Counted from the first letter of the stretch, positions 26,928 to 42,401 are shown. The stretch: 64,000 nt of DNA from Endomicrobiales bacterium (GCA_963794945.1 CAWCFT010000008.1:32001-96000); one strand, 5' to 3'. Made by a program: numbers and translations. The notes: generated by a model from the sequence alone, not told the origin.

Positions 26928-28454
26928 ATGAAATACAAACCTTATTTATCTATCTTTTTATGTATGTCCATGTGTTGCTGCGGCAATGCCTCTGATACTA
27001 GAAAACCCGCTGTTGCGGGCCAGTTCTACCCAGCAAACCCCAATGTGCTCAGATCGGATATAGCTTCTTACCTGTCAAGAGTGCCAGAACAAAAAATTCA
27101 GGGCACACCGGTAGCTTTCCTCGTGCCGCACGCTGGGTACGAGTATTCGGCTCAAACCGCCGCCTATTCGTATTGCCTGCTGTCAGGAATGAATGTCAAA
27201 AATATCGTCATTCTAGGCAATAGCCATCATTTCGGTCTTTCAAAAGCCGCTGTTTATCCGTCAGGGAAATTCGACTCCCCAATAGGCGCTTTAGAGATCA
27301 ACGAGGCGCTGGCTCGTAAAATAATTTCAGAAAGCCCTCTTTTTGAGGAGAACAGAATGCCGCATGGCCCCGAACACTCGCTTGAAGTACAGGTCCCATT
27401 CCTGTTGATGACCATGAAAAATATAAGCATCGTACCTATACTTATGGGCAATTCCAATTTTTCTCTGTATGACTGCCAAAAGGCCGGAGAAGCAGTCGCA
27501 AAAGCGATAAAAGACCTTGGCCTTGAAGGTACAACCGTCATTATTGCGTCAAGCGACCTATCGCATTATCCCTCATGGGCAAATGCGAATATGTCGGACG
27601 CCGCCTCACTCAAGGCAATAGGTAACTTTGACCCGTCAGCGCTAGAAAAAGTCAATTCAAGCATCATGTCCGCTTCGGTCCAAAACTTAGTATGCACTTT
27701 ATGCGGTATTGAGGATGTTTTCGCCGCTATGTACGCAGCAAAAGCGCTCGGCGCTGATAAAGCGCAGGTTTTGCATTACGAAAATTCCGGAGACGTAACC
27801 GGGGATAAATCACGGGTGGTCGGTTATGGAGCGGCGGTATTTTATAAGGAAGGAACAAATACTACTCAGGGCAAACGCCCTGCAACGGAGAAAAATATGA
27901 GCAATTTCAGCGTCAGTGAAAAGAACCAGAAAGAACTGCTTAAAGTCGCAAGGTTGTCCATCGGTAATTATTTGAAAACAAAAAAACTGTCTAATTACAA
28001 GACATCCGACCCCGAGCTGCTGACACCTGCCGCCGTGTTTGTCACGCTTACCCAGAACAGCGCCCTGCGCGGCTGCATTGGCACGACTGAACCGCACGCG
28101 CCGCTTTACGAAGCGGTTAACCAGCTGGCTGTCGCGGCTGCGTTCGAGGATTACCGTTTCAGCCCTATGACAGAAGCCGAGCTTCCGAAAACCCACATAG
28201 AGATATCAGTGCTTTCGCCGCTCACGCGCGTCAGGAGCGCCGACGAGATAAAACCGGGTGTACACGGCGTTGTGGTACGGCAGGGCGGCAGGAGCGGCCT
28301 TTTCCTACCGCAGGTGTGGGAACAGATACCCGGCAAGGAAGAATTCCTCAACGAACTCTGCTGGCAGAAAGCCGGCCTTCAGCCTTCAGCGTGGAAAGAC
28401 CCCAAAACTGAACTGTATATATTCACTGTATTCGCTTTTGAAGAACCGAAATAA
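26928..28454 (+). CDS. amrB: AmmeMemoRadiSam protein B (MEMO1) fused to protein A (AMMECR1)
   Basis: RKPAVAGQFYP, PHAGYEYS, EHSLEVQ, SSDLSHY, VVGY; then VFVTL..LRGCIG, EISVLS, FLPQVW. Confidence 0.93.
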   Translation: MKYKPYLSIFLCMSMCCCGNASDTRKPAVAGQFYPANPNVLRSDIASYLSRVPEQKIQGTPVAFLVPHAGYEYSAQTAAYSYCLLSGMNVKNIVILGNSHHFGLSKAAVYPSGKFDSPIGALEINEALARKIISESPLFEENRMPHGPEHSLEVQVPFLLMTMKNISIVPILMGNSNFSLYDCQKAGEAVAKAIKDLGLEGTTVIIASSDLSHYPSWANANMSDAASLKAIGNFDPSALEKVNSSIMSASVQNLVCTLCGIEDVFAAMYAAKALGADKAQVLHYENSGDVTGDKSRVVGYGAAVFYKEGTNTTQGKRPATEKNMSNFSVSEKNQKELLKVARLSIGNYLKTKKLSNYKTSDPELLTPAAVFVTLTQNSALRGCIGTTEPHAPLYEAVNQLAVAAAFEDYRFSPMTEAELPKTHIEISVLSPLTRVRSADEIKPGVHGVVVRQGGRSGLFLPQVWEQIPGKEEFLNELCWQKAGLQPSAWKDPKTELYIFTVFAFEEPK

Positions 28455-28458
28455 ATAA

Positions 28459-28553
28459 AGTTATAAGCTGTAAGTCATAAGCTATAAGTAACCACCCTCA
28501 AGGCTTATTCTGTTGGCCGTTAGCTTACAACTTAAAGCTTATAGCTTATAGCT
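28459..28553. repeat. Inverted heptamer-repeat hairpin, type A
   Basis: agttata agctgta agtcata agctata ... gcttaca acttaaa gcttata gcttata gct. Confidence 0.85.
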
Positions 28554-28559
28554 AATATT

Positions 28560-29153
28560 ATGATATTTATCGAAGGCCTCACATTAGGTTTCGCTAATAA
28601 CATCTTTTGTATCGGCACTTGTGTGCCCGCCCTCCTGCCTGTCGTCCTTGGCCAAAAAGATAAACCTGTATACCCTGTATTAAAATTTATGACGGGAAGA
28701 TTGATAGCTTACGTACTATTCGGGCAGTATCCGGGGCTGCCGGCATATACTTCGAAGGAAGGATTAACCCGCGGATATTTTCTGTCTTTGTGATCCTTCT
28801 TGCCATTTTTATAATTTTTTTTGCTCTGGCAGATGTTAAACTAAAACTCTGCCCTGCGGGCCTCATGAGATTTGTCAACAAAAATATCCCGTTCTACCTG
28901 GGGTTCGTGATGGGGCTGAATATCTGCCCGCCGTTCCTGATGGGATTATCACGAACTCTTGAGTTTGGCAGCGTTTTTTCGTCAGTTTGTGTTTTTTCTT
29001 GGGTTTTATCTGGGTTCAAGCGCGTGGCTTATCGCTTTCCTTTTCTTTGGAAGACTGCCGAGGCTAAACTACGTAAATATTGCAGGAAGGGTACTCGCCG
29101 CCGCGGTCGGTATGTGGTATATATACAACGGAATTGTCTTGCTATTATTCTAA
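28560..29153 (+). CDS. DsbD_2/sulfite-exporter-like membrane protein (two frameshifts)
   Basis: C..TC.P and GLNICPPF motifs, GRLIAY, F.LG.S; three overlapping fragments. Confidence 0.7.
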
Positions 29154-29165
29154 AATGCTGTATAA

Positions 29166-29208
29166 ATAAAAGCGGCCCGGATGGGCGTCCACGTCATCCG
29201 AGCCGCTT
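29166..29208 (-). terminator. Rho-independent terminator of the amt-glnK operon
   Basis: aagcggcccggatg/catccgagccgctt stem followed by a U-rich tract on the minus strand. Confidence 0.7.
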
Positions 29209-29220
29209 ATACTTCAACTA

Positions 29221-29330
29221 AGTTCAAGGTTCAAGGTTTAAAGTTCAAAAGTTACTATCAAACTCAACAACGTATGTTATTAGTTGTTAAAACATCGTGA
29301 TTGAACCCTTGAACCTTTGAGCTTTGAACC
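29221..29330. repeat. Inverted heptamer-repeat hairpin, type C
   Basis: agttcaa ggttcaa ggtttaa agttcaa ... ttgaacc cttgaacc tttgagc tttgaacc. Confidence 0.85.
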
Positions 29331-29334
29331 GCTT

Positions 29335-29676
29335 TTAACCTATCGCATCGTGGCCTGTTTCACCCGTTCTTATCCTCAAGCATTCCTGAAGTTCAAGAAC
29401 GAATATCTTGCCGTCGCCAACCTCGCCAGTCCTCGCGCCTTTGACTATCGCGCCTATTGTGGGCTTAACGAAATCATCATTAACGGCTATCTCGATCTGG
29501 ACTTTTCTCAAAAGGTTCCCGCTCTCTTTAACGCCGCGATAAACTTCTGTCACACCCATCTGCCTGCCGTGCCCGAGCACTTCGCTTACAGTTATAAGGT
29601 TAACCTCGGCTTTATAAAGTTCCTTTTTTACTTCACCCAGCTTATCCGGCTGTATCACCGCTATTATAAGTTTCAT
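29335..29676 (-). CDS. glnK: P-II nitrogen regulator
   Basis: [22 protein letters not shown]; downstream of amtB. Confidence 0.93.
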
Positions 29677-29689
29677 GAATAACTCCTAA

Positions 29690-29768
29690 TTATAAGATTT
29701 GAATATTAAAAATTTAGAAAATTAGGGCCCTTAAAATCTTCCAATTTTCATAATCTTTAATTTATAAT
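29690..29768. repeat. Inverted 8-9-mer repeat hairpin, type D (AAGATTn)
   Basis: taagattttgaatattaaaaatttagaaaatt ... aatcttccaattttcataatctttaattt; near-copy at 31430. Confidence 0.75.
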
Positions 29769-30998
29769 TTATTCTAGAACGGTATACGCGCCTTCTCTGT
29801 GTTGTGTAAGGTCAAGGCCGATCACCTCGTCCCTTTCTTCGACTCTTACACCCACAGTCGCGTCCACAATTTTATATATTACGTATGTGACTATAAGCGT
29901 GTATATCACGGTTACGAGAACGGCAAAAGCCTGGATAGCCAGCTGTTTAGGATTACCGTACAATAAACCATTGGCAGCTGAAGGATTGATCAGCTTCGTA
30001 GCGAATATTCCCGCGAGAAGCGTCCCAAGTATCCCACCGACACCGTGTACACCGAAAGCATCAAGTGAATCATCATAACCGAGCTTTGGTTTGATCAAAC
30101 CAACCGAAATAAAGCATATGGTGCTCGCTAAAACACCCACGACCATACCTGCAAGAGGCGTTATATAGCCTGATGCCGGAGTTACGGTCGCAAGGCCCGC
30201 TATTGAACCGGTCACAACGCCGAACGTGGTCGGCCTGCCGTTGTGTATCCATTCAAGAAGCGCCCAAACAGCCCCGCCCGCGGCGGCAGCCGCGTTTGAA
30301 GCCACGAACGTGCTGACAGCCAAACCGTTAGCTGCAAGGGCCGAGCCGGCGTTAAAGCCGAACCAGCCGAACCATAGAAGCGCCGCGCCAAGCACCGTGA
30401 ACGGCAGGTTATGAGGCGGCACAGGCACATTTTCGTAGCCTTTGCGTTTGCCTATCACAAGAGCCGTAACGAGGGCCGCTATGCCGGCGGTCGTATGGAC
30501 AACTATGCCGCCGGCAAAATCAAGCACGCCCATATTCTTGAGCCAACCGCCTGTACCCCAAACCCAATGCGCAACCGGGTCGTAAACAAACGTCGCCCAA
30601 AGAACAGAAAACAAAAGAAAAGCCGAGAATTTCATCCTCTCGGCAAACGCTCCTATTATCAACGCGGGTGTTATAACCGCGAACATTGCCTGAAATATCA
30701 TGAACGCCTGGTGAGGGATAGTGCCGGCGTAAGCCGCATAGGGATCAAGGCCCACACCATTCAACCCAAGCCACTGAAGTCCGCCTATAAAACCATTTCC
30801 CGGAGAAAACGCCAAACTGTACCCAAAAAGCATCCACTGCAAACTCAAAACGCACAACGCCGCGAAGCACTGCATCAGAACACCAAGTATGTTCTTACGC
30901 CTGACCATGCCACCGTAAAAAAAAGCCAATCCCGGTGTCATTAACATTACTAGACCTGCCGCGGCTAAAACAAACGCCGTATCGCCTGCATTGATCAT
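29769..30998 (-). CDS. amtB: Ammonium transporter
   Basis: [51 protein letters not shown]. Confidence 0.97.
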   Translation of the reverse strand: MINAGDTAFVLAAAGLVMLMTPGLAFFYGGMVRRKNILGVLMQCFAALCVLSLQWMLFGYSLAFSPGNGFIGGLQWLGLNGVGLDPYAAYAGTIPHQAFMIFQAMFAVITPALIIGAFAERMKFSAFLLFSVLWATFVYDPVAHWVWGTGGWLKNMGVLDFAGGIVVHTTAGIAALVTALVIGKRKGYENVPVPPHNLPFTVLGAALLWFGWFGFNAGSALAANGLAVSTFVASNAAAAAGGAVWALLEWIHNGRPTTFGVVTGSIAGLATVTPASGYITPLAGMVVGVLASTICFISVGLIKPKLGYDDSLDAFGVHGVGGILGTLLAGIFATKLINPSAANGLLYGNPKQLAIQAFAVLVTVIYTLIVTYVIYKIVDATVGVRVEERDEVIGLDLTQHREGAYTVLE

Positions 30999-31071
30999 CT
31001 ATGCACTCCTCATAGAGAATTTTTACAGTATATACGGGGCTGGACGCCCATGATTTAGTTACATCCTCCCT

Positions 31072-31414
31072 CTATCCTATAGCTTCACCTCCGGTTTCGC
31101 CTGTCCTTATCCTTATACAGTCCTTGAGATCAAGGACGAATATTTTCCCGTCGCCGACTTCTCCGGTCCTCGCACCCCTCTCAACTGCTTTTATGGTGCG
31201 GTCAAGGAAGTGTCGTTAACGCGCTATTTCTAGCCTTACCTTTCTTAAAAGGTTTCCGTTCTCTTTTACACCGCGGTAGACTTCCGAGACGCCCAACTGC
31301 CTGCCGTGCCCTAATACTTCGCTTAACCGTAATGAGATTAACCTCTTCTTTATACAATTCTTTTTTCACATAGTCAAGCTTGTGCGCCTGAATTATCGCT
31401 ATTACCATTTTCAT
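31072..31414 (-). CDS. glnK: P-II nitrogen regulator, second copy (frameshifted)
   Basis: [13 protein letters not shown]...; [10 protein letters not shown] and IRIRTGE in other frames; paralog of 29335..29676. Confidence 0.85.
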
Positions 31415-31429
31415 AGTTTACTCCTTATT

Positions 31430-31508
31430 ATAAGATTTTGAAGATTACAACAATTTGAAAATTATGGCCTTAGAAATCTTCCAATTTTCATAATCTTTAA
31501 TTTTTAAT
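31430..31508. repeat. Inverted repeat hairpin, type D (duplicate of 29690)
   Basis: taagattttgaagattacaacaatttgaaaatt ... aatcttccaattttcataatctttaattt. Confidence 0.75.
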
Positions 31509-32888
31509 TTATTCTAGAACCGTATACGCGCCTTCTTTGTGCTGCGTGAGGTCAAGGCCGACGATCTCGTCTTTTTCAGTGCTCTGACGCCAACGATGAT
31601 GTCAACCAGCTTGCAGATAACGAAAGTCATAACGAAACTATAAACTATAGTTACCCCAACGGCTTTAAGCTGAACAATGAATTGGGCCGGGTTACCAAAA
31701 AACAATCCATCCGCTCCAGCAGGATTGATGGCTTTAGAAGCAACAACCCCGTAGCTAGAGCTCCCCAGATTCCTCCGATACCGTGAACACCGAAGGCGTC
31801 GAGAGAATCATCATATCCGAACTTAGGCTTAATGAAAGCAACCATTATGAAGCAGATAACGCTCACCATAAAACCGATTATTATCGCTGGAATTACTCCT
31901 ACGAATCCGGACGCCGGGGTTATGGCTACAAGCCCGGCAACAGCCCCGGTCGCAACACCCAGAGTAGTAGGCTTACCGTTATGGAACCATTCGAGAAGCG
32001 CCCAGGCAAGGCCAGCTGCGGCAGCTGCCGTGTTCGTCACAACAAAAGCGCTTACCGCAAGGCCGCTCGCGCTAAGCGCCGAGCCCGCGTTAAAACCGAA
32101 CCATCCGAACCACAAAAGGCCCGCACCGATCACTGTAAAAGGTATATTATGAGGAGGAATAGGCTGATTCTCGTAGCCTTTTCTTTTTCCAAGAAAATAG
32201 CCGTTACGATAGCCGCTATACCGGCATTGATATGAACGACCGTTCCGCCCGCGAAATCAAGCGCTCCCATGTCCCTTAGGAAACCGCCGACTCCCCAAAC
32301 CCAGTGAGCAACGGGGCAATAAACGAAAGTTGACCAGAGAATAGAGAAAAGCAGGAAAGCCGAGAATTTCATCCTCTCGGCAAAAGCGCCTACTATAAGC
32401 GCGGGAGTTATTACCGCGAACATAGCCTGGAATATCATGAAAAGCTGGTGCGGAATGGTTGGGGATAATCCGCATACGGAGTACAGCCCGACACCGTTAA
32501 GGCCTATCCATTGAAGCCCTCCCCAAAAGCCTTTAGCCGGCCCGAAAGCCAGGCTGTACCCGAAAAGGACCCACTGGAGGCTGATGACACAAAGCATTAT
32601 TCCGCACTGCATGAGAATGCTTAATACATTTTTTTTCCTTACAAGGCCGCCATAGAAAAGCGCCAGGCCAGGTATGGTCATAAGCATTACAAGCGCGGTG
32701 GAAGTTAAAACCCAAGACGTGTCTCCCGTATCTATTTTAGAAGAAGTTGGGGCGGGTGCGGCGGGGACAGCGGCAACCGCTGCCGGCTGGTTCTGAACTG
32801 CGGACTCCTCGGCTGATATCATCACCGGCGCGACTAGAGAGGCTAAAACGAACGTCAAAAGCAATATCCGGAAATATTTTACTAACAT
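31509..32888 (-). CDS. amtB: Ammonium transporter with signal peptide, second copy (several frameshifts)
   Basis: [47 protein letters not shown] across fragments. Confidence 0.92.
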
Positions 32889-32916
32889 AGTTACACTCCT
32901 TAACTAGTTTTAAAAT

Positions 32917-32992
32917 AAAAAAAGCCTAAATTCCCTGCGTCTGGGATTATAGGCTTCAGTGCCGTAAAGTAATTAAAGCATCTTTGCTTTAA
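32917..32992 (-). promoter_or_regulatory. ANTAR-type dual hairpin overlapping an intrinsic terminator (amtB leader)
   Basis: ttaaagC-AAAGAT-Gctttaa, then ggC-ACTGAA-Gcc overlapping the terminator agccta...taggct-T7. Confidence 0.85.
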
Positions 32993-33130
32993 TAATATGA
33001 ACAAATAAAAAAAAGCGCTCCTGTTGGTACAAGTAATTCGAATGGCCGTTTGGTAACCACTCATGATATTGCTTTGTATCTGTACAACTTATAGGGAATG
33101 TTATTGCACGTGATCATGCCCTGTTAATAG

Positions 33131-33469
33131 CTAGATCACCGTCTCGCCTTGTTCTCCCGTTCTTATTTTTATGGCCGAATCAATGGAAGTAATAAATATC
33201 TTCCCGTCGCCTATCTTGCCTGTCCTAGCTGAATCGACTATTATTTTTACCGTTTCATCAACATCCTTATCGTTGACGACCGTTTCTACTTTTACTTTCT
33301 GTAATAAAGGTATCTTATATTTTTCACCTCTGAACTGCTTATAGATTCCTTTCTGCTGGCCGTTTCCCCTGGCTTCAATTATAGTAATTCCACCGCGGCC
33401 GGCTTTTTCGAGCGCTATTCGGACATCTTCAGCTTTATCAGGCTGCAGTATTGCTTCAATTTTTTTCAT
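33131..33469 (-). CDS. P-II family regulator
   Basis: MKKIEAI, GNGQQKG..FRGEKY, TGKIGDGKIF, IRTGE. Confidence 0.92.
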   Translation of the reverse strand: MKKIEAILQPDKAEDVRIALEKAGRGGITIIEARGNGQQKGIYKQFRGEKYKIPLLQKVKVETVVNDKDVDETVKIIVDSARTGKIGDGKIFITSIDSAIKIRTGEQGETVI

Positions 33470-33480
33470 GTCAACCTCCG

Positions 33481-35451
33481 TCAAACCCTTATAGGCAGCA
33501 AAACGAACGGAATGCCTTTTGAATAGAACAACCTTTGCATAACGAATACGGTGTAGTTGTGAAGCCAGCGCGAAATGTGAGATTCCTGTGGGAAAACGAG
33601 CTGCCCCCCGAAAAATATCGCGTTCGGGAACTTCTTAATTAGCGCCGGCATGATCTTCTCAGTTTCATTGATTACGTCTGTCCCGATCACCCGCATACCT
33701 TCCGCATAATACCCCTGGCTGCGCATGTACCGGGAATAGCGAAATACATCAGCTGTGCACTGGTCTTCAAGCTGCGTTATTTGCTCCACTCCCTTGAAAT
33801 TGCCGGCATCTATAACTCCGATCTGGACGAACACAAAGTTCTTAAAAGTCCCCTCAAACAATCGGACTATTCCGAAAAGTGTGTGAAGCCCGAGGCCGTT
33901 GAACCCATTTACGAAAATAACAGCCGTTTTTGCGGCCGGATCTAATATCTTATCCGGGACATCCTCAGGTGTGCCTACGGCGACTACGAGGTCGTTTAAC
34001 CTGCGCAGCAAGAGAGCGGTCTTGTAATAGTGGCGCTTTATTATCACTGCTAGAGCCACCAGGGCGCCGGTCATAAGCAGGGTTGCCCACCCGCCTTCGT
34101 TGAACTTTATAATGATCATCGAGACAAGAATAAACGTCGTAAGTATCATACCAATCCCGTTGACCGATATCTTCTTTTTCCACTCCTTGACTGTTTTTCT
34201 GGCCCCCCACCAGTGGCGCACCATGCCTGCTTGCGATAGAGTGAATGTTATAAAAACGTTTATGCTGTACAAAATAACCAGCAGCTGGACAGACCCACGT
34301 GTGATCAACAGCATTAGAAGCGCCGTAATACCCATGATAACGATACCGTTCTTGTTAACAAACCTATCGCTTAACATAGCGAACCGGGCAGGGAACCACC
34401 GGTCGAGCGCCATGTTCGCGAGCACCCTCGGGCCGTCAAGAAAGCCCGCCTGCGCCGCGACAAGCAGAAGGACCGCCTCTGAAAGAAGGGTTATCAGAAC
34501 GAACACGTATCCTGGCTTGCCCCAGCCGCTGGCAATCGTCTCAAAAAGGACTGCATTCAGCGTTTTCGCCGGGTTGAACTGAACGTGGTATATAAGATAG
34601 GCTGCCATAAGTCCCACAACGGTCACAGTAAGTGAAATAGCCATGTATCGCATGGTTTTCTTGGCGGTCTTGACCTTGGGGTCCCGAAGTATTGGAATCC
34701 CGTTGCTAACAGCTTCGATACCGGTGAACGTCCCCGCACCCATGCTGTAGGCTCGAAGAATTATCAGGAGCATTCCGAGAATTCCTATTTCAGAGTGAGT
34801 TTGCGAGATATCAAGGCGGGTCGCGTGAAGTAACACCGGCATTTGCCCGACATTTGAAATAAAAGCATAAGCTATGATAAAGATGTGTGTAGCCACGAAG
34901 GTAAGAAATATCGGCACAAGCGGCATGACCAATTCTTTAACCCCTCTCAGGTTCAGCACTATCATAAAAAGAAGCAAAATAGCAGAAAAATAAAGTTTAT
35001 ATTGACACAAATAGGCAGGAAGGAAGCTGAATACCGCGTCAGCGCCGCTCGCTATGGAAACCGTTATGGTAAGCACGTAATCTATAAGTAGCGCGCAGCC
35101 TGAGATCATCCCCAATTCAGGCGAAAGTAGTTTGCTCGCTACAAGATACCCTCCACCTCCGCTTGGGAAGAGCTCTATGGTTTGAGAGTAGCTTGTGCTG
35201 ATGATCATTATGGTAAATGCGCTTCCCAGGGCAACGAATAAGCTGAGATACAGGTGGCTGCCGAGAGCCAGGAACGCTTCCTGCGGGCCATAACACGACG
35301 AGGACAACCCGTCTGCGCCAAGGCCCACCCACGCGAAAAACGCCACCAGGGAAAGGTTATGAAATAACCTCGAATCGTGCGGGTCGTGCGCTTTTCCTAT
35401 GACTATATTTTTGATCTTTTGAAAAAATGACAGTTCGTTGATCTTGTTCAT
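33481..35451 (-). CDS. APC-superfamily permease, KimA/YdaO-like
   Basis: GADGLSSSCYGP, FPSGGGGY, TGIEAVSNG, YSINVFITFTLSQ, cytoplasmic C-domain. Confidence 0.85.
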   Translation of the reverse strand: MNKINELSFFQKIKNIVIGKAHDPHDSRLFHNLSLVAFFAWVGLGADGLSSSCYGPQEAFLALGSHLYLSLFVALGSAFTIMIISTSYSQTIELFPSGGGGYLVASKLLSPELGMISGCALLIDYVLTITVSIASGADAVFSFLPAYLCQYKLYFSAILLLFMIVLNLRGVKELVMPLVPIFLTFVATHIFIIAYAFISNVGQMPVLLHATRLDISQTHSEIGILGMLLIILRAYSMGAGTFTGIEAVSNGIPILRDPKVKTAKKTMRYMAISLTVTVVGLMAAYLIYHVQFNPAKTLNAVLFETIASGWGKPGYVFVLITLLSEAVLLLVAAQAGFLDGPRVLANMALDRWFPARFAMLSDRFVNKNGIVIMGITALLMLLITRGSVQLLVILYSINVFITFTLSQAGMVRHWWGARKTVKEWKKKISVNGIGMILTTFILVSMIIIKFNEGGWATLLMTGALVALAVIIKRHYYKTALLLRRLNDLVVAVGTPEDVPDKILDPAAKTAVIFVNGFNGLGLHTLFGIVRLFEGTFKNFVFVQIGVIDAGNFKGVEQITQLEDQCTADVFRYSRYMRSQGYYAEGMRVIGTDVINETEKIMPALIKKFPNAIFFGGQLVFPQESHISRWLHNYTVFVMQRLFYSKGIPFVLLPIRV

Positions 35452-35545
35452 ACGATGTCCAGATGATCAAGTAAAATTTTACCCTCCCACGTTCTTTATG
35501 GAGTGAATAAAGAACAGTGGAGAGGGTAAAATATTTTACAGTATC

Positions 35546-35884
35546 TTAAACTGCCAGTTCGCCTTGTTCGTCAGTGCGGATCCTTACCGCATTCTCTACC
35601 GGGTAAACGAATATCTTGCCGTCGCCGACTTTGCCTGTAAAAGCCGCGTCGCGTATGGCTTTTATCGTTTTCGCAACGTTGCTGTCTTTTACTACCACTT
35701 CTACTCTTGCCTTGGTAAGCAGGCTAACCTTATACGTTTTGCCACGAACCATCGCCTCAACGCCCGCTTGAGCTCCGTGCCCTTCTATCTCAGTTATCAT
35801 TACACCAGGATGCCCTACTTTAGCGAGCACTGCTATTACTTCGCCTACTTTACTGGGACGTATTATAGCTTCAATTTTTTTCAT
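35546..35884 (-). CDS. P-II family regulator
   Basis: [37 protein letters not shown]. Confidence 0.93.
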   Translation of the reverse strand: MKKIEAIIRPSKVGEVIAVLAKVGHPGVMITEIEGHGAQAGVEAMVRGKTYKVSLLTKARVEVVVKDSNVAKTIKAIRDAAFTGKVGDGKIFVYPVENAVRIRTDEQGELAV

Positions 35885-35908
35885 GTTAGACTCCGTTAAG
35901 AATTATTT

Positions 35909-37777
35909 TTATATAGCCAAAATTCCCTTTTCTCCGGTCCTTATCCTCATGGCGTCTTTGGCGTCCAGCACGAATATCTTGCCGTCGCCCGCCTGGCCGG
36001 TCGCGAGGATATCGCGCATTATCGCCATTATCTTTTCGACGTCCCAGTCCTTAACTACCAGGTCTACCCTGACTTTAGGTACAAAAGCGATACTATCGGT
36101 GATCTGAGTGTCGCCGTCGGCTTTGCCTTTTTGCCTGCCGAACCCTTTGACTTTTGTCACGGTCATACCAAGGATCATATCTTCATCCTTAAGCACCTCG
36201 ACAAGTATGTTCAAGGCTTCGGGACGGATAGTGGCAGATACCATTTTCATTGTATAGCTTTTCTTGACAGTCGTGATCGCGACATAGGCGAAACTCACAA
36301 GAGCCCAGCCGCCCGCGAGGTAGAAGCATATATCAGCTTCGGCCTTGGAATCGGCATTACCTATCCTGTATAGGTATATTATCGCGACAAGCATTATGAC
36401 ATTCATAACTATGCCAAGCGCCGGAATCAGTCCGTGTCTGATGAAGTTAAAGTCTTTCCTACCTTTGAACGCTATTATCGTCCATATGCAAGTAAGTCCG
36501 TACAGAATGAACGTACCGAAGTTAGACGCAAGCGATATCCCGGTAAGGCCTACAACGGAACGCACTCCAATCGCGGCTATTACGGACGAAACTATTATGA
36601 GAGTCCACAGCGCTATGTGGGGCGTCGAGAACTTCTCGTGTATGAAACCCATCATGCTGGGCAGCTCCCTGTCGCCCGCCATACCGGCGCTTACCCTCAT
36701 GGCTGTGTTCATACAGCTGAGCGTTGTGCCAATTATGGCTATAGCTACGGTGAACGCCATAGTCATCATAAGTCCGAAACCTAAGCCCGGTACCATGCTA
36801 TCGCCTATGAGCTTTGTAAGGTCGCCTATCGGCGCTCCCGAAGCCGCGGCGGCGGCCATGCCGGTCGTTGTAACTGTTCCGGTCACGTTGACCAGTTTTT
36901 CACTTATCATTGAACCCGCGCAGAAATACTCAAGCAGGTAAGCAATCAGGCCTTGGACTACCAATGATATGATTATCGCTTTTGGTATAGTTTTTGACGG
37001 TTCCTTCGTTTCGGCAGCAAGCGCCGTACAGCTTTCAAAACCAACCAGTATCAATATGGCGATAGTAGATTGTATCAATATGCCGTTCAATGAATGAGGT
37101 TTCATTATGTCCAAAGCGCCGCTAAAAGCCCACGTCGCCGCGTGTTGAGGGTTAGCAATGCGGTACCATATAGCAAGCGCGCTGAAGACCGCGAGCGATA
37201 TCCATTGAATAACATTTATCCAGATAGAGGTCGTGGTTGACCCAGTTACACCGCGGAACGCTACATATCCGGTCGCTATAGCGAATACCACGCCAATCCC
37301 CGTAAGCGACATCACTGAAAGCGTACCGCCTGTAAATTGCGTGTATATGTAGCCTATCATCGTAGCCATCATGGCGACCATTACTCCCGGGTATACCCAA
37401 TAGAACAAGTGAGCGGCCCAACCGGTCACGAGCTTGGCAATTCGCGCAAGCGATGTCGGTGTGCTTTTTACTCCCTCTTTGCCTTCAAGGAAGGATTTTT
37501 CCGCGAAATATGTCACGCTCGCGAAACCAGCTTCAGGGTATATCCTGGCCAGTTCCGAATAGGAAAGGGCAGTAAGAAAGCATATACCCAAAGCCACTAT
37601 AATACCGAACCATATGTCACCTGACACTGATGCCCCGCTCGGTGAGGCAGCGGCGGCCTGCATCTGGTATGTTATCCATAAGAACGCCCCCGGGGCTATT
37701 AACGCCATGGCATTCATCGAAGCTCCCAAAAGGCCCAGCGTTGGTTTTACTTTTGAAGTAGTTATATTTTCTGACAT
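35909..37777 (-). CDS. APC amino-acid/amine permease fused to a C-terminal P-II domain
   Basis: 12-TM APC core (GFESCTALAAE, TP..A), then KMVSATIRP..GFGRQKG..VPKVRV..TGQAGDGKIFV..RIRTGE in one ORF. Confidence 0.9.
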   Translation of the reverse strand: MSENITTSKVKPTLGLLGASMNAMALIAPGAFLWITYQMQAAAASPSGASVSGDIWFGIIVALGICFLTALSYSELARIYPEAGFASVTYFAEKSFLEGKEGVKSTPTSLARIAKLVTGWAAHLFYWVYPGVMVAMMATMIGYIYTQFTGGTLSVMSLTGIGVVFAIATGYVAFRGVTGSTTTSIWINVIQWISLAVFSALAIWYRIANPQHAATWAFSGALDIMKPHSLNGILIQSTIAILILVGFESCTALAAETKEPSKTIPKAIIISLVVQGLIAYLLEYFCAGSMISEKLVNVTGTVTTTGMAAAAASGAPIGDLTKLIGDSMVPGLGFGLMMTMAFTVAIAIIGTTLSCMNTAMRVSAGMAGDRELPSMMGFIHEKFSTPHIALWTLIIVSSVIAAIGVRSVVGLTGISLASNFGTFILYGLTCIWTIIAFKGRKDFNFIRHGLIPALGIVMNVIMLVAIIYLYRIGNADSKAEADICFYLAGGWALVSFAYVAITTVKKSYTMKMVSATIRPEALNILVEVLKDEDMILGMTVTKVKGFGRQKGKADGDTQITDSIAFVPKVRVDLVVKDWDVEKIMAIMRDILATGQAGDGKIFVLDAKDAMRIRTGEKGILAI

Positions 37778-37806
37778 TTTATGTTCCTCCTTTTACAAAA
37801 TCTGGA

Positions 37807-38521
37807 CTAGAAGTTTATGTCCAGTTGTGTGGTGACCATGTGGTTGACGTAACCGCCTACAGCGTTCGGGTTGTTCGGGACTACGTAGCCGAAAAGGACG
37901 CTGGTGTTCGGCGAAAAGGCGTACGAGAAACCGTACGATAGAACTCCGTAATAGCTCTGTCCCGAGGCATAATCTATTGATGCCCACCACTTGTCGTTTA
38001 TCTGCTTGTCGAAGGTAGCAATCATGCCCGTGTTCGCGGCCAGCGCCCTTCTCGTCAAGCAACAGCTTGTTGTTCCCGGCGTAATATCCTACGGTAAATC
38101 TCCCGACCGGCTTGAACGTCTTTGCTATCAGAGCGTAAACTATATTGAAATCCGTGAAGTCCGGTTTTGTACCGAAGTTCTGGCCTCCGACCGCTATCGC
38201 GGGTCTTTTGTCGCCCTCGGGCAATGCGTACTTGGCGTTGAACTGAAGCGGATCATCGGGAGCTCCGAAATAATTAGCGCCGAAATAATCAAAACCGACT
38301 TCCAGGTTCGTGATTGGGCCGTAGGTCAGGTTGACGTCCGTGGGAACGTTTACGGGCTTTGTCTTGTTATCGGTAACCGAGAAATAGTTATCGATACCCA
38401 GGTGCCATGTTTTTACTGTTTGGATGTCAGTCGACGGGTTCCATATCTGCGAGGATGGTGTGGCGTAAAGTGAAGCTGTAGTGGTAAGGCTTATAAGCAA
38501 TGACCAGAATAACTTTTTCAT
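37807..38521 (-). CDS. Exported outer-membrane beta-barrel/porin-like protein (frameshift ~38045)
   Basis: Signal peptide, TPSSQIWNPSTD, C-terminal TTQLDINF. Confidence 0.7.
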
Positions 38522-38565
38522 TTGAATGTCCTCCTTGGATTAAAACGACTTTTGCGCTTGTAAAT

Positions 38566-38633
38566 AAAAAAACTACTTTCCCGGGCGTTGGGTCAAGTAG
38601 GCGTCTTTGTCTATTAGGAGGACTTCAATGTCC
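38566..38633 (-). promoter_or_regulatory. ANTAR-type dual hairpin overlapping an intrinsic terminator (porin/APC-PII leader)
   Basis: ggaC-ATTGAA-Gtcc, then tagaC-AAAGAC-Gccta overlapping ctactt..ccc/ggg..aagtag-T7. Confidence 0.8.
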
Positions 38634-38663
38634 GTTCTGCTATTAAGTTGTTTACTGCTTCAA

Positions 38664-39218
38664 TTATACAAGTAAGCTTGAATAATTTCTGGTAACCTTA
38701 TCAGCTATTTGTTTCTTGTGTTTAACTATCATAACATGAGAAATGCCTAGTATCCTGCCTGTTTCTCTAACAGTGTAGCCGTTATAAAGGTAGCGGATAA
38801 TGTCTTTTTCCAGTATGGAAAGGCCGTTGTTCATTATTTTTTCGTACAACTCTGTCGATTCGAACTGTTCATTAATCCCGGGCAGACCATCAGGCAGCAT
38901 TTCTTCTAAAGAGTTAGAACCTTCCCCTCCAATTACGTCCAAAGAATTGGACGATGAGCCGAAAGGTTCATCAAGGCTCACGAGCTTCACCTGGTCTTTA
39001 ACATTTCTCAAGTAGTTCCTTATATGAAAATAACAGGCTTGCGTGATATAACTTTCTGTCTTATCTTCAAGTATGCCTTCCCGCCACATCTTCCATAGGT
39101 GAAACCTCATCTCGGCGTAGAGATCGTCCGCGTCGGTATAACTGCATATGCTTGAATATTTTGCCGCTATGTTCTTCAGTTTTTCAAAAACGGTGTAAAA
39201 ACGGGTTTCAAAGTCCAC
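38664..39218 (-). CDS. Sigma-70 family (ECF-like) sigma factor
   Basis: Region 2 (DADDLYAEMRFHLW..YLR), VSLDEP, region 4 HTH (GYTVRETGRILGISH). Confidence 0.8.
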   Translation of the reverse strand: MDFETRFYTVFEKLKNIAAKYSSICSYTDADDLYAEMRFHLWKMWREGILEDKTESYITQACYFHIRNYLRNVKDQVKLVSLDEPFGSSSNSLDVIGGEGSNSLEEMLPDGLPGINEQFESTELYEKIMNNGLSILEKDIIRYLYNGYTVRETGRILGISHVMIVKHKKQIADKVTRNYSSLLV

Positions 39219-39939
39219 TTAAAACACCTCCTTCCTTGTCAACGATAATAAGCGCTCCGTTATCCATAAGCGTCCACTCAAAACCTGGCAGCGGCTCGGA
39301 ACAAAATGAGAAAGAGTGCCGCTCTGAATTGGAGAAATACAGCGTGTAATATTCTTCGTCTTCAGAAAAATCCCTGAACCCGATCAGATATTTTTTGTTA
39401 GACAGCAGGAATGTCAAAGATGTACACTTGCACACCGCTTTTATCTTGCTGACAGCACCCTTTATCAGTTCCTGATATTCATCAATTTGTTTATTGCCTA
39501 GCGTGCTTATCAGGTATTTGAAAAATCTCTCTGAATCCGTGCCGCCCTCATACGAGTATCCTGGAATCTCTATATTTTCAGGCTTTTCCACTGTCCCGTT
39601 GTGGCAGAATATCCATTCCTTATATATGAAAGGGTGTGAATTTTCAATCATAATGCCGCCTTCCGAAGCGCTTCTCATATGCGCAATGACTATTTTTGAT
39701 TTTGAAGCCACGGCTTTAGCCGTTGCTTTTTCGTAATCTTCAGTTTCAACCGCGGCGTTACCGGAACTTCTTCCGAAATGCACCGTCCAACCACCGAGGT
39801 AACCGGCTACGCCCCACCCATCGCCATGACCTTCTTTCATGGTCCTCAGGCTGTTGCCTTCGAGCGACAGCCTTTGAAAATCTTCGAACCACAGCGGTGA
39901 TATTTTATTATTAGAAGCAAGCCCTATCATTCTGCACAT
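39208..39939 (-). CDS. Class II glutamine amidotransferase (YafJ/EgtC-like Ntn hydrolase)
   Basis: N-terminal MCR (catalytic Cys), HGDGWG, AHMRSAS, NSHPF, HNG, TDSE. Confidence 0.9.
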   Translation of the reverse strand: MCRMIGLASNNKISPLWFEDFQRLSLEGNSLRTMKEGHGDGWGVAGYLGGWTVHFGRSSGNAAVETEDYEKATAKAVASKSKIVIAHMRSASEGGIMIENSHPFIYKEWIFCHNGTVEKPENIEIPGYSYEGGTDSERFFKYLISTLGNKQIDEYQELIKGAVSKIKAVCKCTSLTFLLSNKKYLIGFRDFSEDEEYYTLYFSNSERHSFSFCSEPLPGFEWTLMDNGALIIVDKEGGVLSGL

Positions 39940-40037
39940 CTGATCCTCCTGCCGAAACATCTGGCGGATTCGGTTCGAATAAATGCTCAAATCGTATCAA
40001 TTAGTCCTATGTCAGAACAACCAATGTTCCTTTAAAC

Positions 40038-40198
40038 AAAAAAAGTCTTCAAACCCCGTTAAACGAGATCTAAAGACTTCATAGTCTTTCGGTTTTCCAA
40101 GCGCCTATGCTTTAGAAAACCATTCACTGCTTTAAAATTAAAAATCCCCAAATCGAAACCGATTCGAGGACTTCTTTGTCCTGCACCAATATTATAGC
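40038..40198 (-). promoter_or_regulatory. Extended -10 promoter and two tandem ANTAR-type hairpin/terminator units
   Basis: TGcTATAAT (40191-40199); ggaC-AAAGAA-Gtcc plus terminator; aagC-ATAGGC-Gctt and aagaC-TATGAA-Gtctt plus terminator T7. Confidence 0.75.
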
Positions 40199-40230
40199 AC
40201 TTTAATCGTATTTGTCAAGTATTGCAATCT

Positions 40231-40338
40231 GATCAAAGGATTAAAAGTTCAAGGTTCAATTCAACTACTAAATCAAAATTAACAAGCAACGGCCTATATC
40301 TTACCTTTGAACCTTGAACCCTTGAACTTTTCAACCCT
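40231..40338. repeat. Inverted repeat hairpin, type C
   Basis: gatcaaag gattaaaa gttcaag gttcaa ... tttgaac cttgaacc cttgaac ttttcaac. Confidence 0.8.
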
Positions 40339-40341
40339 GCT

Positions 40342-41346
40342 TTAAGATTCCTCTTCCATCATTTTGTCAAAAAATTCCAGATACTTGTTCGGCGTCGCAC
40401 CCTCGGATGCTTTTATCGCATCCCTGGGGTGCTGGTTTAGCTGACCGGATATCATATAGTTGATGTTATACCCCCAAAGCATTTTTTCACGCAGAGGTAT
40501 GAAGACTTTTTCTATTGTGTCTAGTACGGGCCTGAGGTCGAACCTGGGGTTTTTGAGAAAACCAAGCAGCAGTTCAAGCGGGCAGTTCCCCGCGCCCCTG
40601 CCGAGGCCGTTAATAGTGGCATCCAGGCGGTTGGCGCCATATATTAGAGCGTCTATAGTATTCGCATAGGCCAACTGCTGGTTATTATGGGCGTGGATAC
40701 CGACTTCTTTATTAGTGCCGGCAAGAATGTTCACAAAATTCTTGGTCAACTCCCTTATCTGCTCAGGATATAATGACCCGAAACTGTCTACAACGTATAC
40801 AGTATCGACTGGCGTCCTGGCTAATGCCTCTATAGCTTCAAAAAGGTCTTTATCTTGCAACACTGAGACCGCCATCAGGTTAAGCGTGGTCTCATAGCCT
40901 TTGTCGTGAGCGTCTTTTATCATGTCGATCGCTGTCGGTATCTGGTGAATATAGGTAGCGACCCTTATTACATCTATAACGCTTTTTTCTTTCGGAAGTA
41001 TATCGGCGTGGTAGTCTGTCCTCTCGGCGTTTGCCATAACGCTGAGCTTTGTGCCGGTCTTGTTCTCCCCGACAATTCGTCTAATATCGTCTTCGTCGCA
41101 GAACTTCCAGGCTCCGAACTTGGCGGGCGCGAATATCTTCTTAGATGCCTTATAGCCCAGCTCCATATAGTTTACACCGGCCGCAACACAGGTATCATAA
41201 ACGGTCTTGACGAACTTGTCATCAAACTTAAGATCGTTAATAAGCCCGCCGTCCCTAACTGTGCAGTCAAGTATCTTTATTTCGGGCCTGTATGTTACCC
41301 AGGTCCCTTTCGCGTTCTTGTCTTTCTCGTGGTTTACTGCGTTCAT
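40342..41346 (-). CDS. DRE-TIM metallolyase (HMGL-like; 4-hydroxy-2-oxovalerate aldolase-related)
   Basis: LDCTVRDGG, VVDSFGS, GIHAHNNQQLAYAN, GLGRGAGN. Confidence 0.85.
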   Translation of the reverse strand: MNAVNHEKDKNAKGTWVTYRPEIKILDCTVRDGGLINDLKFDDKFVKTVYDTCVAAGVNYMELGYKASKKIFAPAKFGAWKFCDEDDIRRIVGENKTGTKLSVMANAERTDYHADILPKEKSVIDVIRVATYIHQIPTAIDMIKDAHDKGYETTLNLMAVSVLQDKDLFEAIEALARTPVDTVYVVDSFGSLYPEQIRELTKNFVNILAGTNKEVGIHAHNNQQLAYANTIDALIYGANRLDATINGLGRGAGNCPLELLLGFLKNPRFDLRPVLDTIEKVFIPLREKMLWGYNINYMISGQLNQHPRDAIKASEGATPNKYLEFFDKMMEEES

Positions 41347-42401
41347 ATAATTATCTCCAAAATAATAAAATATACTACCATCAAAATAAATCCAAGCGGT
41401 AATCCGATCCTGGCCCACTGACGGCTTGTTATGCCCAGCCGTCCGGCCGAAATTATGTTCGGTATGTTGCCTGGTATAAGCATGCCACCAGCTATCAAGA
41501 GCCCAAGCAGCGCCGACTGTATCTGCACCAACCCCATTTTCGGGCTTATCTCTGCCGCGGTGAGAGTGGCGTTGTCAACAACCGCAGAAGCTGTATTCAA
41601 CCAGTAAAGAGCCGCTGCCGGCATATTTATCACGTATTTATCTACAACAGGTTTCAAACCTGTTCCCAGCAGCACCAGTGCAACTACAAAAACATAAACT
41701 TTAAAAGACCTGATGAAAATATCTTTGAATGTTTCTCGGTCAATTTCATGGAAACCGGTTTTATCCGAGCCTTCCCTGACGCTCGGCTCAATGAACCACC
41801 CCGTTATTCCCAACCCTATTACACCCGGTATAATGAAAAAGCCGAGATGTCTGAATATGAACAGAAAACCGGCATTGTAAGGGCCTGCAGCCAGTTTCGC
41901 TACGCAGATCGTTGAGAGAGGCTCGCCAATAGGTGTCAGCGCTGCCCCGAGACCTATGGAAAAACACCCAAGCACGACAAGTTTGAGCTCATACTCTTTA
42001 GAGAGCTTTAGCGCTGACACAACTTCAACAAGCAGTATGGCCGCTATTATCGCGGTTATAACGCTTGACAGGAGCCCCAGGATCACGACTAAAGCGAAAC
42101 AGAACAGCTTTGACCCCATTACCCTTTCAATGCTTACTATAAACTTGGTAACTTGGCTTTTGAAATAGAAAATTATAACCCCAAAAACAAGTACTGCAGC
42201 CGTTATAAACAACGGTTCTTTCAGTGCCTGAGTTAAAAGACCTAGCGACCACACCGGCTCCTGCCCCCACCCGTGAGAAAAACTGACGCTGAGAACGCCC
42301 ATAAAAAAAAGAAAAGCTTCTAAGTTCTTTTCTATTATGTGCACGCTTAACGGTAAAAATAGCACGAGCAGCACTACCAGCGTAAGGCTTATTATGAGCA
42401 T
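41343..42401 (-). CDS. DUF1646-family membrane protein (putative cation transporter)
   Basis: EKNLEAFLF, GAALTPIGEPLSTI, DNATLTAAEI, GGMLIPGNIPNII. Confidence 0.88.
   Translation of the reverse strand: MLIISLTLVVLLVLFLPLSVHIIEKNLEAFLFFMGVLSVSFSHGWGQEPVWSLGLLTQALKEPLFITAAVLVFGVIIFYFKSQVTKFIVSIERVMGSKLFCFALVVILGLLSSVITAIIAAILLVEVVSALKLSKEYELKLVVLGCFSIGLGAALTPIGEPLSTICVAKLAAGPYNAGFLFIFRHLGFFIIPGVIGLGITGWFIEPSVREGSDKTGFHEIDRETFKDIFIRSFKVYVFVVALVLLGTGLKPVVDKYVINMPAAALYWLNTASAVVDNATLTAAEISPKMGLVQIQSALLGLLIAGGMLIPGNIPNIISAGRLGITSRQWARIGLPLGFILMVVYFIILEIII

Follow-up and report, generated by a model that had tools for sequence, protein, structure and literature searches.

A candidate two-tier switch of ANTAR antitermination and a small sigma factor in a nitrogen-uptake island of an Endomicrobiales bacterium

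Introduction

How is an island that holds every P-II gene and every ammonium transporter gene of its genome switched on? The question is raised by positions 29,335 to 40,198 of a 64,000-nucleotide stretch from an Endomicrobiales bacterium (GCA_963794945.1, CAWCFT010000008.1:32001-96000; hereafter the window), where a gene for a putative small sigma factor and genes for a glutamine amidotransferase, a porin-like channel, permeases, ammonium transporters and P-II proteins follow one another on the minus strand. A first-pass annotation, made from the sequence alone, had pointed to short hairpins of the ANTAR type in three leaders between these genes and had proposed a cascade in which an ANTAR protein releases a dedicated sigma factor. 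The comparisons reported here support that cascade, every computational check suggested for it having turned out in its favour and the sigma gene standing behind two ANTAR-type terminator modules, and extend it in two respects: leaders 2 and 3 are preceded by a putative sigma-specific promoter, and in other genomes GAF-ANTAR genes are physically linked to sigma genes. We interpret the island as a nitrogen-uptake regulon under a two-tier, feed-forward switch, and place the probability of this interpretation at about 0.7. What can be seen directly, in the sequences or by comparing them, is the set of hairpins and the terminators with which they overlap, the presence of the ANTAR gene, the fold of the sigma protein, the co-occurrence and placement of a promoter-like motif and the linkage of these parts.

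The binding partners, the ligand and the logic of the switch are what we infer. In the first tier, a strong sigma-70 promoter (40218-40191) would fire constantly, and its transcripts would halt at two tandem terminators. The halt would be lifted when the single GAF-GAF-ANTAR protein of the genome binds the hexaloop hairpins and so keeps their 3' arms from the terminators, and read-through would then yield the amidotransferase and the small sigma factor, which resembles those of the extracytoplasmic function (ECF) type. In the second tier, the sigma factor would drive its own promoters before the porin, APC-PII and P-II genes and before the amt-glnK-amt-glnK genes. Because each sigma promoter is again trailed by an ANTAR dual hairpin and a terminator, full expression would need both the sigma factor and an active antiterminator, as in an AND gate. 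The P-II and GlnK proteins would then control the transporters post-translationally.

Results

Hexaloop hairpins overlap the terminators of three leaders

A scan of the spacers returned six perfect hairpins and one with a single mismatch, and the seven hairpins first claimed for the three leaders are borne out in each detail: a C-G closing pair, a six-base loop and a G at loop position 4 (G4) in seven of seven, and an A at loop position 1 (A1) in six of seven. Their assignment to ANTAR antiterminators likewise agrees with the published target RNA, which consists of two short hexaloop hairpins with A1 and G4, one of them competing with an intrinsic terminator, as for EutV at eut of Enterococcus faecalis, NasR at nasF and AmiR at amiE (PMC3369931).

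Leader 1 opens with hairpin H1 (40167-40182, loop AAAGAA), the 3' arm of which lies within terminator T1 (40140-40175, a U-run after it; -20.3 kcal/mol in the minimum free energy fold of 40190-40130). Hairpins H2 (40099-40112, loop ATAGGC) and H3 (40072-40089, loop TATGAA, the sole loop without A1) follow, and the 3' arm of H3 is the 5' arm of intrinsic terminator T2 (40042-40080), which ends in U7. Leader 2 carries H4 (38620-38633, loop ATTGAA) and H5 (38598-38613, loop AAAGAC), the latter with one A.C stem mismatch and a 3' arm that overlaps terminator T3 (38566-38600, CUACUU...AAGUAG, then U7). Leader 3 carries H6 (32972-32993, loop AAAGAT) and H7 (32952-32963, loop ACTGAA), with the 3' arm of H7 forming the 5' arm of intrinsic terminator T4 (32914-32957, U7). 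All seven hairpins come from the scan, covariance models also recover H4 to H7, and the terminators come from folding. Leaders 1b, 2 and 3 each hold one hairpin pair, and leader 1a holds a single hairpin.

The four intrinsic terminators are arranged as two in tandem before the amidotransferase-sigma operon, one before the porin gene and one before amt1, and in the minimum free energy folds the 5' arm of each takes in the 3' arm of a hexaloop hairpin. Perfect hairpins of the form C-A..G..-G with a stem of at least 3 bp number five in 635 nt of leader, where 0.35 would be expected from the genome density (Poisson 3e-5); none of 5000 leader shuffles reached five. The stems measure 3-8 bp. A search of window positions 28000-42000 with all Rfam families at E<=10 gave chance-level matches only and no ANTAR family. 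A looser two-hairpin A..G.. hexaloop pattern, found 245 times as against 92-138 in shuffles, was rejected as too unspecific to define a regulon.

One GAF-GAF-ANTAR gene lies elsewhere in the genome

The first-pass annotation had placed the ANTAR protein outside the window, and a genome search did return one PF03861 match there (78.9 bits, C1:352113-352268), in a gene directly behind secA on contig C1. In this genome (G000 in our set) the protein is split by a frameshift into a GAF piece and a GAF+ANTAR piece, which together make GAF-GAF-ANTAR; intact orthologues of 410-419 aa have the same domains. In NCBIfam, the GAF parts of an orthologue come closest to those of PtsP (E 3.2e-33) and NifA (E 1.8e-23). 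The GAF regions of PtsP and NifA bind glutamine and/or 2-oxoglutarate. With this likeness as its sole basis, our guess is that the signal is likely nitrogen status, perceived through the GAF domains as 2-oxoglutarate and/or glutamine. An ANTAR match is present in 28 of 41 genomes of a sample of the order and in 118 of 401 genomes of a sample of the phylum.

The island encodes a probable small sigma-70-family factor

The gene at 38664-39218 encodes a 184-aa protein of ECF size, with putative sigma2 and sigma4 regions. The sigma-70/ECF superfamily profile TIGR02937 aligns over the full length of the window protein, though at a score under its cut-off, and likewise in 11 of 11 homologues (12-175 to 12-161 of 165; best 3.5e-17), and two database relatives are named as sigma-70 family by their source. 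The structural model consists of two confident helical domains, an N-terminal helical domain and a helix-turn-helix (HTH) domain, with a disordered linker between them. All Foldseek matches listed for this model are sigma factors or RNA polymerase holoenzyme complexes that hold one; the best E-value is a modest 3.2e-4, and the TM score stays near 0.3 because the linker is floppy. The protein would be a sigma-70/ECF-like factor that directs initiation. Its gene was found in 10 of the 401 genomes of the phylum sample, with one (G315) a weak match, and no anti-sigma gene was seen beside it.

A promoter-like motif accompanies the sigma gene

Two kinds of promoter or promoter-like sequence are visible in the island. 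The amidotransferase-sigma operon is preceded by a consensus sigma-70 promoter, TTGACA-16-TATAAT with TG (40191-40218; 12/12 matches), the best in 29000-40500. The upstream limit of 40198 that had been set for the island encloses the genes but not the start of the unit, as this promoter reaches just outside it. The second kind derives from a shared block first noticed in the leaders of locus L002, which led to the motif GGTTACC-N15-TTACTTGTA. Of its exact copies, one precedes leader 2 from within the 3' end of the sigma gene (38667-38697) and one precedes leader 3 (33028-33058); the 2.9-Mb genome holds no others. A third site with one mismatch (C11:35367-35397, before an ATP-synthase A chain gene) has no flanking A/T blocks and was set aside as probably due to chance.

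At up to one mismatch the motif is found in 14 of the 401 phylum-sample genomes, namely in 8 of the 10 with a sigma match and in 6 of the 391 without one; a reversed-pattern control gave about 16 matches in 15 genomes of the same sample (hand count). For a wider view, a sigma profile was used to collect 414 metagenomic relatives, and the best 80 loci were kept. At up to two mismatches these contain 67 motif matches in 65 loci; all 67 are on the sigma strand, and 56 of them are at the 3' end of the sigma gene. Among 60 distinct copies, positions outside the selection show an A after GGTTACC (A8) in 59, a stretch of T ahead of TTACTT, and a TGTA that lies five bases downstream. The motif blocks can be read as a -35 element TTACCA and a -10 element CTTGTA separated by 17 nt (core GTTACCA-N14-TTACTTGTA), and co-occurrence, the sole ground here, suggests that the island sigma recognises them. 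In genome G042, which has no sigma match at E<=1e-8, a good copy of the motif lies 2 kb after a short ANTAR-like open reading frame (ORF; C3:9033-11370); a divergent sigma gene may stand between the two.

The alternative that survives best, though we consider it unlikely, is that the protein is a small LuxR/GerE-type HTH activator that binds the GGTTACC...TTACTTGTA site and aids the housekeeping holoenzyme, with the ANTAR part of the scheme unchanged. Pfam gives sub-threshold GerE and Sigma70_r4 HTH matches in homologues, although none in the window protein, many LuxR/NarL-type HTH domains turn up next to sigma factors in a PDB profile search, and the TIGR02937 score of the window protein falls under the cut-off, all of which an activator could explain. 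An activator does not so readily account for a profile alignment that is full-length in all 11 homologues, for a model in which a helical N-terminal domain accompanies the HTH and draws only sigma or holoenzyme structures among the listed matches, or for a motif with the geometry of a promoter, its hexamers 17 nt apart and its orientation the same in 67 cases to 0. We prefer a sigma factor on these grounds.

The RNA element recurs beside nitrogen genes in other genomes

Simple pattern scans being too unspecific, covariance models were used to follow the RNA element. Model R1 was built from four hairpin pairs. Model R2 was built from 14 pairs from six genomes, being 18 candidate pairs less four (L095a, L096a, L096b and L002d); MAFFT misaligned hairpin 1 with hairpin 2 where linkers differed. 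These dual-hairpin models recover the leaders, on which such a test had been suggested. In the bacterium's own genome R2 gave five matches at E<=10, with leaders 2 and 3 in the top two ranks, a third match upstream of an operon for a type III glutamine synthetase (GSIII) and glutamate synthase (GOGAT) on contig C4, and the remaining two inside ORFs. After the dual hairpin before GSIII-GOGAT (C4:329834-329864, minus strand) comes a hairpin that is rich in G+C but has no U-run behind it, so that termination there, if any, would not be of the standard intrinsic type.

Across 40 relatives R2 returned nine matches at E<=0.5, three of them training sequences. Four of the six others precede amt (G012), a porin-like gene and amt (G010) or gdh (G002 and G006), and the two weakest are inside ORFs. 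The 80 metagenomic sigma loci yielded 82 matches at E<=1, every one (82/82) on the sigma strand. Of these, 45 fall in the 300 nt that follow the sigma gene (in 40 of the 72 loci whose sequence continues there for 150 nt or more), 17 fall in the 300 nt that precede it (in 17 of the 76 loci with enough upstream DNA), and the other 20 are elsewhere.

Orthologous leaders of other genomes carry the hairpins too, with invariant C-G closing pairs, A1/G4 loops and stems that vary. In the R2-fitted alignment, 95.9% of cells pair (74.4% in shuffles), the closing C-G pair is kept in both helices of all 69 distinct rows, and the outer pairs show two-sided changes in 85 cells. Across 67 six-base loops, A1 is present in 59 and 54 (for the two hairpins) and G4 in 66 and 67. 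A strict dual-hairpin scan of 53 loci with an APC-PII gene found pairs only in L002 and L029; single matches in L019 and L024 are probably chance. In L029 (9288-9345, before sigma) the second hexaloop hairpin overlaps a CUUCCU able to pair with the AGGAGG ribosome-binding site and not a terminator, which suggests that ANTAR control in this locus would be translational rather than transcriptional.

ANTAR, sigma and nitrogen genes are linked in other genomes

The ANTAR gene, distant from the island in the genome studied here, immediately precedes the sigma gene in G046, G205 and G041; in G055 it comes first with sigma 2 kb further on, and in G057 the two share an island. Of the 57 metagenomic loci that extend 700 nt or more upstream of sigma, 15 have a GAF-ANTAR gene as the recognised gene nearest before it. 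An ANTAR match is present in 9 of 9 genomes with a strong sigma match, compared with 118 of 401 overall; the copy in G065 is a fragment at a contig end, and G315, with its weak sigma match, has no ANTAR match. Downstream, in the 57 metagenomic loci with at least 700 nt after sigma, the first recognised gene encodes a 12-strand porin in 19, amt in 11, P-II in five, glnA in four, a BBP2 porin in three and APC-P-II in two; none was recognised in 13. A GXGXG-motif protein of the glutamate-synthase C-terminal-domain family is encoded directly before the ANTAR gene in two sigma-positive genomes (L132 45-884, from G041, and L126 2187-2915, from G057).

These neighbourhoods also bear on a second alternative, that the sigma factor and the ANTAR element are independent passengers of a mobile nitrogen cassette, with the sigma gene free of ANTAR gating and no cascade. 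It would be consistent with the low share of loci with an R2 match within 300 nt upstream of sigma (17 of 76), with the unlinked ANTAR gene of the own genome, and with G205, in which the sigma-type promoter itself precedes the sigma gene. We regard it as distinctly unlikely all the same, since the window has two hexaloop terminator modules between the promoter and the amidotransferase-sigma operon, G002 and G046 show the same layout before sigma, and ANTAR accompanies every strong sigma match at 9/9 where 118/401 carry it overall. That the hairpins are ordinary terminator or attenuator features of leaders, unread or read by some other RNA-binding factor, with a merely coincidental likeness to ANTAR targets, is very improbable: stems of only 3-8 bp, chance-level genome-wide counts of the simple pattern and the lack of an Rfam match to the region would allow it, but the closing pair never changes, A1/G4 persist across 67 six-base loops (69 distinct rows) as stems vary, the strand bias is complete (82/82), matches precede nitrogen genes in genomes outside the training set, and ANTAR genes are adjacent in many loci.

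Observations that weigh against the two-tier switch

Several results lower our confidence in the two-tier switch. The window sigma protein scores 37.4 bits against a curated TIGR02937 cut-off of 42.9, and Pfam gave no match for it. Two of the 10 sigma-positive genomes have no motif at up to one mismatch; G055 has two mismatches, and G315 is the weak sigma match. On the RNA side, only one hairpin guards T1, whereas published descriptions have ANTAR dimers bind two hairpins, and leader 1 was not among the matches returned by R2 in the own genome (150 of 619 candidates scored). The C-G-closed two-hairpin pattern occurs 178 times genome-wide and 152-194 times in shuffles, which is no enrichment; the specificity of the element therefore rests on terminator overlap and on genome comparison. 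The covariation alignment was fitted to the model, and the training hairpins had been picked by a rule that demands pairing, so that strand bias and gene context are the less circular evidence.

The remaining points concern the genes. The ANTAR gene, porin, amt1 and glnK1 are frameshifted in the assembly. The pair of genes for the KimA-like permease and its P-II protein stands behind a strong terminator, and neither a promoter nor an ANTAR element can be recognised for it. The genome also encodes sigma-54, and other nitrogen control may therefore act as well. The idea that the system substitutes for a missing sigma-54 was rejected, as Sigma54_DBD was found twice. GlnD was not found in the genome, which is 86% complete.

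Genes and flanks of the island

All 11 co-directional genes reported earlier were recovered, as were the counts of five P-II domains and two ammonium transporters (Pfam, with Ammonium_transp on both amt genes); no P-II or amt gene of the genome lies outside the island. The first gene (39208-39939) encodes a class-II glutamine amidotransferase (GATase_4 in Pfam) of the N-terminal nucleophile (Ntn, Cys2) type, EgtC/YafJ-like. Its true start is probably the ATG at 39939 (MCRMIG...), with an AGGAGG Shine-Dalgarno sequence six bases upstream, and not the TTG at 39990. An "amide/amine uptake-and-hydrolysis" module, as the island had been described, finds nothing in its favour beyond family names, the amidotransferase belonging to the EgtC/YafJ-like Ntn type.

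The gene after sigma (37807-38521) encodes a 242-aa, secreted protein with no match in Pfam or PDB searches, which we assign as a porin-like outer-membrane channel with a 12-strand beta-barrel on the strength of a predicted model; its reading frame is broken near 38040 in the assembly. The AlphaFold model of the intact orthologue from G002 is a 12-strand barrel (14 sequences, mean local confidence pLDDT 79, global confidence pTM 0.73), with FapF, a COG4313 channel and a KdgM-family porin among the structures matched to it by Foldseek.

Next comes an APC-family permease with a C-terminal P-II domain (35909-37777; Pfam and PDB), followed by a P-II gene (35546-35884; Pfam). This fusion is a conserved family with 47-76% identity over 53 loci, usually with a free P-II gene next to it, in metagenome-assembled genomes labelled Smithella/Syntrophaceae, Fibrobacterota, Spirochaetota, Nitrospirae, FCPU426, Omnitrophota and others, many from bog or fen. 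APC and P-II domains occur together in one Atlas cluster of 80 members, and a literature search at the level of listings found no description of the fusion permease.

The porin/APC-PII/P-II unit ends at a strong terminator-like hairpin of 69 nt (35469-35537; fold, -35 kcal/mol), which is near-perfect and lies about 18 nt before the start codon of the next gene. That gene encodes an APC permease like KimA, of a K+ importer family (33481-35451; PDB 6s3k, E 8.1e-61), and overlaps a further P-II gene (33131-33484; Pfam) by 4 nt. No hairpin of the ANTAR type occurs in the spacer that separates the P-II gene at 35546 from the KimA-like gene, and no promoter is visible for the downstream pair. The permease is translationally coupled to its P-II protein through this overlap (33131-35451, minus strand) and has a paralogue of 68% identity on contig C15. 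The pair is missing from the other sigma loci. A P-II partner of a KimA-type transporter may merit attention.

The island closes with ammonium transporter 1 (31509-32888, at least three frameshifts in the assembly), glnK1 (31072-31414, frameshifted in the assembly), ammonium transporter 2 (29769-30998) and glnK2 (29335-29676), all assigned by Pfam. Similar AT-rich spacers before glnK1 and glnK2 were considered as a separate element and ruled out, being part of an amt-glnK tandem duplication (88% identity). Frameshifts break the porin gene, amt1, glnK1, the GAF-GAF-ANTAR gene and GSIII (~38040, 32185, 31768, ~31585 and ~31370 in the window; C1:351062-352301; C4:327598-329659). Two of the amt1 breaks, inspected by eye, are both in A/G homopolymer runs, and the frameshifted island, ANTAR and GSIII genes are probably intact in reality. 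The flanks at 40230-40340 and 29215-29330 hold long inverted repeats of GGTTCAAGG-like units, which have short matches at a few other intergenic sites of the genome. The nearest named loci carry Omnitrophota labels or are unclassified.

Discussion

ANTAR control of P-II, amt and glutamine synthetase (GS) genes is already known in other bacteria (PMC3369931, PMC2995071). ANTAR elements ahead of genes for P-II, ammonium transporters, GS and GOGAT were predicted across diverse bacteria by Ramesh et al. (2012), who state that no GAF-ANTAR protein had been characterised by then (PMC3369931). With EutV, NasR and AmiR the system described here shares dual hexaloops, A1/G4 and competition with a terminator. 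It differs in that the regulator has two GAF domains in place of a receiver, NIT or AmiC-partner domain, and in that its targets also stand behind a dedicated sigma promoter, with the sigma gene itself among them.

The closest precedents that we found combine two layers of control. In Geobacter sulfurreducens, where GnfL/GnfM act on GnfK/GnfR, nitrogen genes including glnK-amtB need both an initiation regulator and an ANTAR antiterminator that acts on leader terminators (Ueki & Lovley 2010, PMC2995071). The conserved upstream sequence CAGGCAANGGCGCC given in that report is readable as a C-G-closed hexaloop with A1/G4 (PMC2995071). The order of the layers is inverted, however: in Geobacter a sigma-54 enhancer-binding protein turns on an ANTAR two-component system, whereas here ANTAR would gate an ECF-like sigma factor, and no histidine kinase is involved in the island scheme. 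In Klebsiella oxytoca, nasF has an NtrC/sigma-54 promoter and NasR antitermination, which amounts to two-signal control of a nitrogen-assimilation operon (PMC12591593). Both nasF and the predicted island switch place an alternative-sigma promoter ahead of an ANTAR-controlled leader terminator; sigma-54 is general and not known to be ANTAR-controlled, whereas the island sigma is small, island-specific and rare (10/401).

Compared with ECF sigma factors of group 4, the protein shares a size of about 170-185 aa, a predicted architecture of sigma2 and sigma4 only, few targets and a gene beside its own promoter. It departs from them in the absence of an anti-sigma gene beside it, control seeming to run via antitermination of the mRNA. 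The usual ECF promoter type is GGAAC/CGTC, which the island motif does not resemble. With AmtB-GlnK pairs the island has its two tandem amt-glnK pairs in common, and it adds the APC/P-II fusion and the P-II protein coupled to the KimA-like permease.

The feed-forward wiring of ANTAR and sigma seems undescribed. Literature searches combining ANTAR with ECF or sigma factors and antitermination, with subscription journals outside their reach, found nothing relevant; a search on GAF-ANTAR found nothing on such wiring, its match concerning NasR. Among the matches listed, none mentions ANTAR in Elusimicrobia, Elusimicrobiota, Endomicrobium or Omnitrophota, and matches to the two motif blocks searched as strings look unrelated. 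In the accessible part of the supplementary text of Ramesh et al., the words "sigma", "ECF", "Elusimicrobium" and "Endomicrobium" do not occur (PMC3369931). We did not find in print a design in which one antiterminator gates both the supply of a sigma factor and the targets of that factor.

A bolder reading, which we advance tentatively and with somewhat less than even confidence, is that GAF-ANTAR and the small sigma factor make up a nitrogen switch that is complete in itself and has spread horizontally, with the GAF domains reading 2-oxoglutarate or glutamine directly and the ANTAR domain freeing the sigma mRNA as well as all mRNAs that the sigma factor drives, and that the sigma factors would be a new ECF-like group without anti-sigma factors, controlled solely by antitermination. 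The cassette has few parts, namely one sensor, one sigma factor, a promoter of about 31 bp and an RNA element of about 35 nt, and would therefore lend itself to direct tests in E. coli or in vitro and to use as an orthogonal expression switch with two inputs.

If this bolder reading is true, one RNA-binding sensor and one sigma factor would form a coherent feed-forward AND gate in the role that NtrBC/sigma-54 or GlnR/TnrA play in model bacteria. Judged from the 414 sigma relatives in the metagenome scan, the predicted system is common in uncultured bacteria, and it would therefore explain how ammonium uptake is controlled in many uncultured anaerobes.

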